Source: a bacterium (GTDB lineage Bacteria; SAR324; JACQKK01). From it: a DNA stretch of 64,000 bases. How positions within the stretch are numbered: the first letter of the stretch is position 1; each line of letters starts with the position of its first letter. The notes below the pieces were generated by a model. It worked only from the letters and a program-made list of their open reading frames with translations. It was not told the origin of the DNA and made no database searches. The stretch spans positions 1,024,001 to 1,088,000 of the forward strand of contig OZ251219.1 in assembly GCA_965240465.1 (NCBI GenBank). Direction: 5' to 3'. This document shows positions 55,565 through 61,104 of this stretch, one piece after another. The translations under genes were made by a program, and so were the position numbers.

Positions 55565-56110
55565 ATGTGGCATAATAGAACAAAGGGCAATACATATAAA
55601 AAGTACATTGTGAATTTATTATCATTTTTTGGTTTGTTTAGGGGCTCAAAGTCTACCACTGGTTTAGTGGCTGAGGCTGTGGCAGGGAAATTATCTACGG
55701 ATATGAATTCTGTGCAAGAAGGTTGTCTTGAAACGGATGAGCAGCTTAAGGTTTGGGATACTCCACTGGTGGACTTGGATGAACTTGGTTTGGCAGGTTG
55801 GCAAATGGAGCGTGGAGTCAAATGGCGTATGCCCCCTGCGGGTGAGGTACGAATGGATAGCAATTGGTTCATAAATATTACCCAAGAGTGGTTTAATGTT
55901 GAAGAGAGCCTAGAAGATACAGGGTGTCCTTCGCTATTGGATTGGAACAGCGAGCGTGAAAAGGTGGGGGTTCTCAGTATGAGAGATTTAGTGCTGGACT
56001 TACAACCTTTTGCCTCAGACAAGGGGGCGGAAGGCTGGTGGGAAAGGCAGGGAGTAATGTCGCTGAATATGGAGGAATTAGAGACTGCCAAGCGTGCAGT
56101 GGAAAAATAA
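55565..56110 (+). CDS. Hypothetical acidic protein
   Basis: 181-aa ORF; start uncertain; no recognised motif. Confidence 0.5.
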   Translation: MWHNRTKGNTYKKYIVNLLSFFGLFRGSKSTTGLVAEAVAGKLSTDMNSVQEGCLETDEQLKVWDTPLVDLDELGLAGWQMERGVKWRMPPAGEVRMDSNWFINITQEWFNVEESLEDTGCPSLLDWNSEREKVGVLSMRDLVLDLQPFASDKGAEGWWERQGVMSLNMEELETAKRAVEK

Positions 56111-56238
56111 AGAGATTTTGAAATATTATTTCTTGATGGCATTATTTTACAATAATTTTTAATAGTCTGCTTGCAGACGGTTTAATTGTGGTTTATGGTA
56201 GAAGATAATGAAACGCAGGTCATTTTAGATGGCTTGAA

Positions 56239-56249
56239 GTTCTTTGACA
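56239..56249 (+). promoter_or_regulatory. boxA-like rRNA antitermination element
   Basis: GTTCTTTGACA about 115 nt upstream of the 23S 5' end, the usual spacer boxA position. Confidence 0.6.
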
Positions 56250-56364
56250 GTAGTGTATGAGGACCCAAAATGCGGATGTGCATTTTGGGCAAATAAGCTT
56301 GAATTCGTAGTGATTTTTGGTTGGCCTTGATAGGGCTGATCTGTTGAGGATCTGTGGAATAAAA

Positions 56365-59364
<3,000 letters not shown>

Positions 59365-59425
59365 TTTTATTCCACATCCTCAATACACTAAAAGCAAATA
59401 CGCTGCAGTCAAAACTCCTGTGGAC

Positions 59426-59470
59426 GCAGAATCCTTGGAGGCAGAATCCCTGGAGGCAGAATCCCTGGAG
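59426..59470. repeat. 15-bp tandem repeat x3 (gcagaatcc[t/c]tggag)
   Basis: Read directly, immediately downstream of the 23S. Confidence 0.9.
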
Positions 59471-59491
59471 GGATACTTGGATAGGAATATC

Positions 59492-59519
59492 TTGACAAAA
59501 ATCTAGAAGTTGTTATACG
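59492..59519 (+). promoter_or_regulatory. Putative sigma70 promoter for the DUF1761-DUF1761-5S unit
   Basis: Perfect TTGACA, 16-nt spacer, extended TG-n-TATACG. Confidence 0.45.
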
Positions 59520-59587
59520 CTCTGGACGCAGTGACAGGTGGTCACTTGTTCATACTCTTTTTTTCTAGAATTAAAGGATATATCATT

Positions 59588-59989
59588 ATGAAAACGTTTT
59601 CCTCATTTCCCTGGCGGTACATTATTTTGGCTGCTGTAGCTTCTTTTGTTCTTTCTTTTGTATGGTATAGCCCTCCTCTCTTTGGTGAAATATGGGCTAC
59701 TTTGAGTGGAATTAATCCTGAAAATTTTGGGGTGTTCTTAGCGATAGTATCTTTCATTACTTATTTGCTACAGGCCACGGTTTTATTTGCTGTTTTAAGA
59801 GCTTTTAACGCCAAAGGACTTGATGGGGAATGGTTCACTGCGGTTCTGCTAGTCGGAGTTACAGGCACTCTGTACTTATCAGGCGGTGTTTTATATTTGC
59901 AGAGGCCGCTTGATTTATTTTATATTGAAGGCGGTGATTACTTGCTTGGTATTTTTGTGACCGGATTGATATTGAGTCGCAAGGTATAA
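59588..59989 (+). CDS. DUF1761-like 4-TM membrane protein, paralog 1
   Basis: ILAAVASFVLSFVWYSPPLFGEIW signature; ATG 59588 with upstream AAAGGA (ORF track start 59510). Confidence 0.8.
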   Translation: MKTFSSFPWRYIILAAVASFVLSFVWYSPPLFGEIWATLSGINPENFGVFLAIVSFITYLLQATVLFAVLRAFNAKGLDGEWFTAVLLVGVTGTLYLSGGVLYLQRPLDLFYIEGGDYLLGIFVTGLILSRKV

Positions 59990-60055
59990 GAATTTTGTAG
60001 AATAGTAGGTTGTCAATTTGCTATTTTCTTAACACTTCCTTCAAGAGAGGTTTTT

Positions 60056-60460
60056 ATGGAATTGATTTCAGTACTCCCCTTTGGTGCCATCGTGTTGGCA
60101 ACTGTGGCATCTTTTGTTGTTCAGTTTATCTGGTACAGCCCACTGGGATTTGCTAAGGCTTGTAAAAAGTTCAGCAACTCAAACCAAAATTGTAATTGCT
60201 CTATTGCTTATGGTATTTCGCTCAGCTTAATTGCTTTGTTTTTGCAGGCCGTATTGTTGTCTTTTGTATTACAGGCTCTGAATTCTCAAGGCTTTGACAC
60301 GGCTTTGTACGTAACTAGTTTGCTGCTGATTATCAGTGGTAGTGCTAATATGCTGATGGGCTCACTTAGTAATCAAAAGTCAAATATTTTTTTGGCTATT
60401 AACGTAGGAGGATACACAGCAACCGTGGTAACCTCTGCTATAGTATTGGCACTTGTTTAA
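60056..60460 (+). CDS. DUF1761-like 4-TM membrane protein, paralog 2
   Basis: VLATVASFVVQFIWYSPLGF; RBS GAGG; aligns by eye with paralog 1 (LQA.L...L.A.N..G.D). Confidence 0.75.
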   Translation: MELISVLPFGAIVLATVASFVVQFIWYSPLGFAKACKKFSNSNQNCNCSIAYGISLSLIALFLQAVLLSFVLQALNSQGFDTALYVTSLLLIISGSANMLMGSLSNQKSNIFLAINVGGYTATVVTSAIVLALV

Positions 60461-60493
60461 CGTATTTTAAGAAGGAGAAAAACGGCTTTGGTT

Positions 60494-60610
60494 TTGCGGT
60501 GATTATGGCGGAGATGTTCCACCTGTTCCCATCCCGAACACAGTAGTGAAAGTTTCCTGCGCCGATGGTACTGCCCCTTTCAGGGGTGGGAGAGTAGGGC
60601 GTTGCCGTGA
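60494..60610 (+). rRNA. rrf: 5S ribosomal RNA
   Basis: CCACCTGTTCCCATCCCGAACACAG..GTGAA, GCCGATGGTACT, GGGAGAGTAGG; flanking complementary stem aaacggctt / aagccgttt. Confidence 0.97.
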
Positions 60611-60673
60611 TCCAAGCCGTTTATTTTCCTCATTTTGCGAATACGGGTTGTTTTAATCCATCACATTTAAGTT

Positions 60674-60706
60674 AAGCAAGATTGCCGTTATGGGCGTATC
60701 TTGCTT
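60674..60706. terminator. Hairpin between convergent 5S and cyaY, possible terminator
   Basis: aagcaagat...atcttgctt inverted repeat. Confidence 0.45.
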
Positions 60707-60755
60707 GCCCTCGAAATAGGACAGTATGGCAGCTTGTTTGCTGTTGTAAGACTAA

Positions 60756-61085
60756 TTAGAACTCTACAGTAATACCTGTTTCGTCCTGGATGATTTTTCT
60801 GAGGAGAGCCAGTAATTCATTGGCGGAGTCTTTTTCATCTCGCCATGACTGAGTTTCTGAGTGGTAGGAAAATCGGTAGGCAGTGCCTTTGGATGCTACC
60901 GCCAGCCAGAGCTGTTGCAAGGGCGGTTGTGTACTGATGATCCAGTACTTCTGATTAACAATTAAGGTGAGAGTTCCGTGGCTGTCTTCGCACTCAATTT
61001 GGTCATCATCTAGGGCATCAATGACGCTCTGGATGTGCTTGCGAGTGGCCTCAATTTTTTGTCGGTATACTTGGGGAGTGAGCAT
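60756..61085 (-). CDS. cyaY: Frataxin/CyaY iron donor protein
   Basis: HGTLTL, WIISTQPPLQQLWLA, FSY...W. Confidence 0.85.
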   Translation of the reverse strand: MLTPQVYRQKIEATRKHIQSVIDALDDDQIECEDSHGTLTLIVNQKYWIISTQPPLQQLWLAVASKGTAYRFSYHSETQSWRDEKDSANELLALLRKIIQDETGITVEF

Positions 61086-61104
61086 ATAATCTATGTGTCA
61101 GGGG

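Follow-up and report, generated by a model that had tools for sequence, protein, structure and literature searches.

In the stretch of DNA analysed here, a window of 64,000 nucleotides (nt) covering positions 1,024,001 to 1,088,000 of contig OZ251219.1 (assembly GCA_965240465.1, a bacterium of the SAR324 lineage), the 23S and 5S ribosomal RNA (rRNA) genes are separated by 1127 nt that are occupied by two co-oriented and intact paralogues of the DUF1761 family, called here ORF1 and ORF2 (ORF, open reading frame). All parts of the locus lie on the same strand, with 220 nt between the 23S and ORF1, 66 nt between ORF1 and ORF2 and 34 nt between ORF2 and the 5S. The host genome is a single closed contig of 1,599,138 bp (marker completeness 83.6%) with one copy each of the 23S and 5S genes, and its sole 16S gene lies about 308 kb from this locus; coordinates are those of the window unless stated otherwise. 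Judged from the sequence, the transcript that yields the 5S rRNA of this bacterium probably includes both DUF1761 messages as well.

On balance we favour a single transcript that would start at the 23S promoter, pass through both genes into the 5S under boxA-type antitermination and then be cut into the 23S rRNA, a two-gene message and the 5S rRNA. A hybrid rRNA/mRNA unit of this sort had been proposed in an initial annotation, made from the letters of the window alone, and the proposal holds in part. The anatomy of the locus, its conservation in the only other species of the genus in our collection (G001, 1.7 Mb, one contig, closed), a motif in the 23S leader and the fit of the 5S precursor stem speak for it, whereas the TTGACA promoter candidate that was part of the proposal turned out to be weak and not conserved.

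Layout, conservation and derived state of the locus

The initial annotation had placed the end of the 23S near 59364 and the start of the 5S near 60494, with about 1.1 kb between them, two paralogous co-oriented genes in this interval and the second stop codon about 33 nt ahead of the 5S. Rfam gives 59367, 60495 and 1127 nt, Pfam and the ORF coordinates agree on the two genes, and the last distance was measured as 34 nt, so that the layout is confirmed as real in every detail (Table 1). No other RNA family was credibly detected in 59360-60500 with Rfam at E <= 1, and the spacer between the 23S and ORF1 is without unusual structure (folding z +0.53).

Table 1. Coordinates of features at the 23S-5S locus, as positions in the 64,000-nt window
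Feature	Position	Strand	Basis and remarks
boxA-like 15-mer GAAGTTCTTTGACAG	56236-56250	+	23S leader, 128 nt ahead of the 23S
Leader hairpin CCCAAAATGC ... GCATTTTGGG	56264-56289	+	just 3' of the boxA-like element; by eye
23S bracketing stem, 5' strand	56344-56371	+	RNAduplex, gap-free pairing of 28 nt
23S rRNA gene	56364-59367	+	Rfam RF02541, 2858 bits, model positions 1-2925 (full model)
23S bracketing stem, 3' strand	59358-59385	+	pairs with 56344-56371
Tandem repeat, 15 nt x 3.4	59421-59471	+	Tandem Repeats Finder (TRF) score 88, 94% matches
Promoter candidate of the initial annotation, TTGACA-16-TATACG	59491-59518	+	TTGACA at 59491-59496; read by eye
ORF1, DUF1761, 133 amino acids (aa) from ATG	59588-59989	+	Pfam PF08570, E 1.6e-18
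Hairpin (-16.6 kcal/mol) with a T-rich run behind it, within ORF1	59878-59914	+	permissive scan; not in the standard scan
ORF2, DUF1761 paralogue, 134 aa	60056-60460	+	Pfam PF08570, E 1.2e-13
Closing stem of the 5S precursor, 5' strand	60461-60494	+	RNAfold of 60455-60650; starts 1 nt past the ORF2 stop
5S rRNA gene	60495-60610	+	Rfam RF00001, 76.8 bits
Closing stem of the 5S precursor, 3' strand, with T-rich runs	60611-60645	+	pairs with about 60461-60494 (RNAfold; inverted repeat)

Regions of rRNA are often mis-assembled in metagenome-derived genomes, and an artefact that joined the end of a 23S, foreign genes and a 5S would produce the same picture, but several lines of evidence make this extremely improbable. 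A contig of 2032 nt from run X1, which is possibly the source sample, spans 59113-61100 with 0 differences. Another contig of 2070 nt, from run X3 of a different study, spans 59109-61087 with about 148 differing letters (about 8% divergence) and reaches over the 23S end, both ORFs, the 5S and the cyaY gene. The closed single contig of G001 has the identical order, with two DUF1761 genes (132 and 133 aa) between a 23S and a 5S that lie 1247 nt apart (gaps of 161, 85 and 200 nt), and in both species the locus is flanked by cyaY and by a tRNA gene on the opposite strand. The layout is not an assembly error, because the order recurs in a genome of the same genus and the gap is bridged by a contig of a different study; the contiguity of the 23S-5S interval, which the initial annotation had named as a point to check, is thus borne out by X1, X3 and G001. 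One joint in run X3, from 59239 to 60520, involves conserved rRNA parts and has 31 letters on one side, and we took it as DNA of other organisms.

The strain of run X3 carries a 33-nt insertion at 59573/59574, directly ahead of the ORF1 ribosome-binding site, and has 29 nt fewer at 59442-59480, within the tandem repeat, which indicates that the untranslated part of the spacer is fluid between strains. The repeat, described in the initial annotation as three copies of 15 bp and extended by TRF to 3.4, is variable, as it is shortened in X3 and missing from G001. In addition, a perfect 12-nt direct repeat, TTTTCCTCATTT, lies at 59597-59608 (ORF1 codons 4-7) and at 60624-60635 (just past the 5S stem), at a distance of 1027 nt; it could have arisen by chance in T-rich sequence or be the trace of a rearrangement. 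Upstream of the 23S, a 181-aa ORF at 55565-56110 is co-oriented with the rRNA gene and stops 253 nt ahead of it, and its C-terminal part is apparently also coded upstream of the 23S of G001 (DNA compared by eye).

Elsewhere in the phylum the interval is short. In all 26 other genomes of the phylum in which both ends were seen, the 23S-5S gap is 50-288 nt (50-288 nt in 13 relatives of the same order, 50-109 nt in six more, and about 71-147 nt in a further seven, which were measured by blastn with the end of the 23S of this genome); five of 19 loci stop at contig edges ahead of any 23S and are excluded from this count. As all these gaps are short, the long gene-bearing spacer is a derived state. 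The statement of the initial annotation that bacterial 23S-5S spacers are normally short and non-coding is thereby true of this phylum, with protein genes at this place being known from the Candidate Phyla Radiation (CPR), and in the comparison of related genomes that it had suggested only G001 resembles the present genome. In one 12-Mb genome of the same order (G039), high-scoring 5S arrays are arranged head to tail every 918-938 nt on contigs C192 and C420 (30 5S matches in the genome), which looks like contamination of the bin by eukaryotic 5S rDNA.

The two DUF1761 genes

Both ORFs match DUF1761 along practically the whole model (length 123, Pfam cut-off 31), ORF1 with 67.6 bits over positions 3-122 and ORF2 with 51.8 bits over positions 2-122, and the copies of G001 score 76.5 and 60.7 bits. 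The two proteins of this genome share 32% identity (E 1e-18), and no other DUF1761 genes occur in it. By eye, ORF1 has a ribosome-binding site AAGGA at 59574-59578, 9 nt ahead of its ATG, and ORF2 has GAGAGG at 60045-60050, 5 nt ahead of the ATG; the frame of ORF1 is also open from a TTG at 59510. When the spacer was shuffled 2000 times, 33 of the shuffles had a stop-free stretch of at least 133 codons. Two intact DUF1761-like ORFs with good ribosome-binding sites, as the initial annotation had them, are therefore found again with an end-to-end profile match and located motifs.

The comparison with G001 covers a considerable evolutionary distance, the proteins of the neighbouring cyaY genes being 49% identical and synonymous sites being saturated, so that a ratio of nonsynonymous to synonymous substitution rates (dN/dS) could not be computed. 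Orthologues of ORF1 are 46% and those of ORF2 38% identical, with dN of 0.51 and 0.60 as against 0.43 for cyaY. That four frames have stayed open and still match the family model in full at this degree of divergence indicates that they are genes under selection. In a quick tree ORF2 is sister to the second gene of G001 (ORF2'), with a value of 91 in the Shimodaira-Hasegawa-like approximate likelihood ratio test (SH-aLRT), and the duplication is thus older than the split of the two species.

Not all signs point to undiminished constraint. An alignment of 74 homologues gave a near-invariant aromatic motif, W26, Y27, F32 and W36 in ORF1 numbering, of which ORF1 carries all four residues and ORF2 three, with a Cys at the W36 position, where at least 90% of the 74 homologues have Trp. 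ORF2 is also the longest branch of its clade (1.28, quick tree). The Cys and the long branch together suggest a relaxed or altered constraint on ORF2 compared with the copy of G001. Such features would be expected if the ORFs were passengers, transcribed within the spacer of the pre-rRNA, not usefully translated and decaying, and the same could be said of the two ORFs of G001, which have no visible Shine-Dalgarno sequence, and of a genome in reduction (1.6 Mb here as against 2.3-5.2 Mb in its family). We nevertheless regard decaying passengers as improbable, given four intact ORFs in two species at saturated synonymous sites, the full-length DUF1761 match of all four, a dN similar to that of cyaY, the good ribosome-binding sites at both ORFs of this genome and a confident structural model of ORF1.

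This model, obtained with AlphaFold2, has four long helices and one short helix, with a mean predicted local distance difference test score (pLDDT) of 96.2. Foldseek found no match for it in the PDB at E <= 0.001, and the best VIA-align hit among 48,161 chains (Z 7.6) is within the range of common arrangements for helical bundles; a convincing likeness to a solved structure was thus not found with either program. A search of the ESM Atlas returned DUF1761 clusters only, with scores of at most 0.88. No studied member of the family was found in the literature searched, and in the papers listed there the term occurs at most four times each and never in a title or abstract. We take the products of ORF1 and ORF2 to be small inner-membrane proteins of uncharacterised function.

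The other DUF1761 genes of the family to which this genome belongs sit away from rRNA genes (10 loci). Against a profile of the pair they reach E 1e-9 to 1e-13, compared with 1e-58 to 1e-62 for the pair itself, and are thus only distant kin of it. In the quick tree (81 rows, 138 columns, most forks unresolved, the partial or doubtful L010, L013 and L015 omitted) the four proteins of the genus group with P0005, P0007 and P0029 (SH-aLRT 84) and are separate from the other DUF1761 genes of the family; P0005 and P0007 are closer relatives from the HMMER library. Further examples of the layout were sought as well: a word-based protein search returned the query alone, a search of genome contigs returned the record of G001 and one weak unrelated match only, and a search of metagenome contigs gave three distant loci of 30-50% identity.

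Signals for transcription and processing

The leader of the 23S contains a boxA-like 15-mer that, at one mismatch or fewer, has exactly two matches on both strands of the genome (3.2 Mb), the other one being 393 nt ahead of the 16S. G001 has related copies in its 16S and 23S leaders, and G038, a member of the same order, has one in its 16S leader. Such confinement to rRNA leaders is as expected of boxA, which in Escherichia coli is the site where NusB and S10 assemble a termination-resistant rRNA transcription complex, and by its distribution and a presumed likeness to the consensus the 15-mer is a putative boxA. NusB and Rho are both encoded in the genome. The TTGACA within the 15-mer was taken for a -35 box by the promoter scan. 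Just 3' of the element the leader can form a hairpin, and in G001 a hairpin of other sequence, GCCAAAAACGCA ... TGCGTTTTTGGC, occupies the equivalent place of the 23S leader (by eye, two species).

Both rRNAs of the locus are bracketed by stems. The 23S stem is found in the same form in G001, its 3' strand CTTGACTT(T/C)TATTCCA being conserved between the two species, and the spacers of family relatives begin with TATTTC(C/T). As to the 5S, the initial annotation had described a flanking stem, which is present and is longer than described, extending to about 60461 and 60645. The precursor fold has a z of -3.41, with 1 of 200 shuffles folding as well, and the core of the stem, AAACGGCTT(T)GG, is conserved in G001. 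Behind the equivalent 5S stem there (z -4.52) come seven T, which pair with a run of A further upstream, and stem and T run together make a putative terminator-like structure. The 5S flanks pair with each other in 13 of 13 relatives with short spacers, for which reason the stem seen here is the ancestral precursor stem. As it starts 1 nt past the stop codon of ORF2, a complete 5S precursor must begin inside ORF2 or further upstream, and a promoter-like site ending 6-8 nt ahead of the 5S was found neither here nor in G001.

We scanned for promoters of the sigma-70 type and for terminators with short loops. The scan listed 8 terminator-like sites in 6 kb, where 6.4 would be expected, but none of them is on the plus strand from the end of the 23S to that of the 5S. 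This agrees with the initial annotation, which had seen no clear intrinsic terminator past the 23S. The single terminator-like site of G001, inside ORF1', is at chance level (1 found, 4.6 expected). Promoter-like sites are likewise at chance level, with 9 against 6.9 +/- 2.5 expected here and 1 against 2.8 +/- 1.5 in G001, and none is conserved between the two genomes, whose spacers align only at the two stems. The TTGACA-16-TATACG put forward by the initial annotation is indeed present in the sequence, but it is missing from the list of the consensus scan and is aligned to a gap in G001.

Several observations weigh against the single transcript. The identity of the 15-mer as a boxA is presumptive, being based on its distribution and a presumed likeness to the consensus, and the restriction of the scans to two classes of signal applies to all the counts above. 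The hairpin inside ORF1, which has no counterpart in G001, might with its T-rich tail stop part of the transcription. Weak promoter-like sites do occur, namely the TTGACA-16-TATACG at 59491 and a TTGATA-16-AAGAAT at 59966 (9/12, scan), as does an extended -10 element, TGCTATAGT, at 60436-60444 (by eye), from which RNA would start about 10 nt ahead of the 5S stem. In G001 the 200 nt between ORF2' and the 5S could offer room for an unrecognised promoter, and the ORFs of that species lack the visible Shine-Dalgarno sequences mentioned above.

The same sites could serve two or three independent units, in which the 23S transcript would end soon past its stem by an unrecognised signal such as Rho, the ORF pair would have its own promoter near 59491, and the 5S would either derive from that mRNA or have a promoter within the 3' end of ORF2. 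The three candidate sites (59491 and 60436-60444 by eye, 59966 by scan) and the presence of Rho would agree with this, and orphan 5S genes with promoters of their own in the same class indicate that such promoters do evolve in the lineage. We hold independent units to be rather unlikely, however, as no candidate site is conserved in G001, promoter-like counts are at chance level, and a boxA-type element counteracts Rho in the rrn operons of E. coli, as the boxA-like element of this leader would do. Furthermore, a long precursor stem has been kept at the 5S here and is absent from the orphan 5S genes.

These orphan genes belong to G064 (2.4 Mb) and G065 (1.6 Mb), two closed and reduced genomes of the same class in which the only detected 5S lies about 950 and 850 kb, respectively, from the only 23S match. 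They resemble the present case in phylum, in genome reduction and in that the 5S lies behind a co-oriented protein gene, rmuC 70 nt ahead in G064 and nadE 52 nt ahead in G065. They differ from it in that a promoter-like site abuts the 5S and the flanks do not pair, leaving both without a flanking stem. In G064 the site is a TTGACA-18-TAAACT (10/12, found by the scan) that ends 6 nt before the 5S; in G065 it is a TTGCTT-17-TACAAT (8/12, seen by eye only and under the threshold of the scan) that ends 7 nt before it. The regions concerned are 301-490 of locus L070 (G064) and 301-472 of L071 (G065). Truly independent 5S genes of this lineage, with an abutting promoter-like site and no stem, thus look unlike the 5S here.

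The linkage of the 16S to the 5S also varies among four relatives: the two are a few kb apart in G038 and G008, about 24 kb apart on one contig in G011, and on opposite strands and far apart in G001. Together with the orphan 5S genes, these patterns show that rRNA genes are linked, pried apart and fully scattered within one phylum. The 23S match of G065 (C1:636409-639607) spans 3199 nt for the 2925-position model, with the 23S here being 3004 nt long; the 23S genes could contain insertions.

RNase III, which could be expected to act on such stems, was detected in this genome neither with PF14622, PF00636 or TIGR02191 nor by tblastn with the protein of G001, whereas TIGR02191 matches 20 of 20 relatives, G001 included. 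In G001 pnp is followed by rnc, by a gene for a pseudouridine synthase (S4 and PseudoU_synth_2 domains) and by a fourth gene, and here pnp is separated from that fourth gene by only 280 nt (genome positions 1254341-1254622). By synteny, both rnc and the gene for the pseudouridine synthase are missing from this interval, and from this evidence the RNase III gene is deleted in this genome. The perfect 28-nt stem of the 23S has been retained despite the loss, and an RNase E/G homologue is encoded. In Helicobacter pylori mature 23S and 5S rRNAs are still formed by other routes without RNase III (Iost et al. 2019, PMC6582327), and the same source names RNase E in E. coli and RNase M5 in Bacillus subtilis as enzymes of 5S maturation (PMC6582327).

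In the single-transcript reading, for which all RNA steps are proposed, a tandem DUF1761 pair would have entered the 23S-5S spacer in the ancestor of the genus, exactly between the 23S stem and the precursor stem of the 5S, and both would have remained functional ever since. RNA polymerase would start at the 23S promoter, at about 56100-56145, would be turned termination-resistant at the boxA-like leader element and would transcribe the 23S, ORF1, ORF2 and the 5S as one RNA, stopping at the long stem of the 5S, which has a T-rich tail, or soon past it. Cuts at its stem would free the 23S and leave a remainder of about 1.2 kb with both messages and, at the 3' end, the 5S precursor. The 5S would then be cut out at its own stem, and because the RNase III gene is deleted this excision would fall to other enzymes, an RNase E/G-type enzyme and exonucleases being the likely agents. 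Both proteins would be translated from the processed RNA, possibly aided by weak internal promoters.

A stronger version can be put forward only tentatively, and we consider it open to doubt. It would hold that the only 5S of the cell can be obtained only if polymerase starts at the 23S promoter and reads through both genes with antitermination of the rRNA type, with DUF1761 synthesis hard-wired to ribosome synthesis, the 5S forming the 3' end of a message and the RNA being dismantled, after the loss of RNase III, by single-strand-specific RNases alone. The locus would then be a natural intermediate between the classical operon and an orphaned 5S as found in the same class.

Known systems and significance

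Closed genomes of the CPR with same-strand protein genes between the 23S and the 5S were described by Lui et al. 2021, who state there that they knew of no earlier report (PMC8172020). In the part of that paper concerned with these cases they are counted as possibly operonic, transcription not having been tested there (PMC8172020). The type C class of the same paper comprises same-strand genes whose neighbours are less than 300-500 nt apart (PMC8172020), and the gaps here (220, 66 and 34 nt) and in G001 (161, 85 and 200 nt) are all below this range. The present locus is like the CPR (Patescibacteria) cases in its same-strand genes between 23S and 5S, in its small genome and in its unlinked 16S, which the passages on the CPR describe as frequent there (PMC8172020). 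It is unlike them in belonging to a phylum outside the CPR and in its cargo, a conserved pair of DUF1761 paralogues, whereas homing endonucleases are mentioned in those passages (PMC8172020). A literature search, in which subscription journals were not covered, gave no report of protein genes between 23S and 5S outside the CPR, or of DUF1761 at that place. Protein genes in this interval are thus already known from the CPR, and the locus described here is a further case with a DUF1761 pair.

Mixed operons of stable RNA and mRNA are known from other bacteria, as with tRNA-tufB of E. coli. The 16S unit of Buchnera, which includes ORFs, is another such operon according to the account in PMC7761764. 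What is proposed here is similar, in that a stable RNA and messages would come from one transcript and be separated by RNases. In these mixed operons, however, the stable RNA stands before or beside the genes, whereas the DUF1761 pair lies between two rRNAs that belong to one and the same ribosomal subunit.

Unlinked rRNA genes have reportedly been treated by Brewer et al. 2020. The genome analysed here is comparable with reduced or symbiotic genomes that have unlinked rRNA genes, as portrayed in the relevant part of PMC7761764, in combining genome reduction with a broken 16S-23S-5S operon. Surveys of unlinked rRNA genes, as far as that part of the source goes, treat the link between 16S and 23S and not bacterial genes between 23S and 5S (PMC7761764). 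With H. pylori the present genome shares a stand-alone 23S-5S unit, which here too would be processed at stems, although the spacer of H. pylori is free of genes and its RNase III is present, by the description in the pertinent section of PMC6582327, whereas the genome analysed here has lost RNase III naturally.

If the 23S, both genes and the 5S are indeed transcribed as one RNA, the locus would be a test case for how messages survive and are translated inside an antitermination-modified and very active rRNA precursor, and for the maturation of 5S rRNA without RNase III. It would also provide the first regulatory context for the uncharacterised DUF1761 family, whose expression would be tied to ribosome synthesis. 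Furthermore, it would be a test case for the step-wise decay of rRNA operons during genome reduction, with linked, pried-apart and orphaned states in one phylum. If instead the units prove independent, the arrangement would be just a local oddity of gene order. The main value of the locus lies in this series of step-wise rRNA operon decay within a single phylum, together with the natural loss of RNase III in the genome that carries it.

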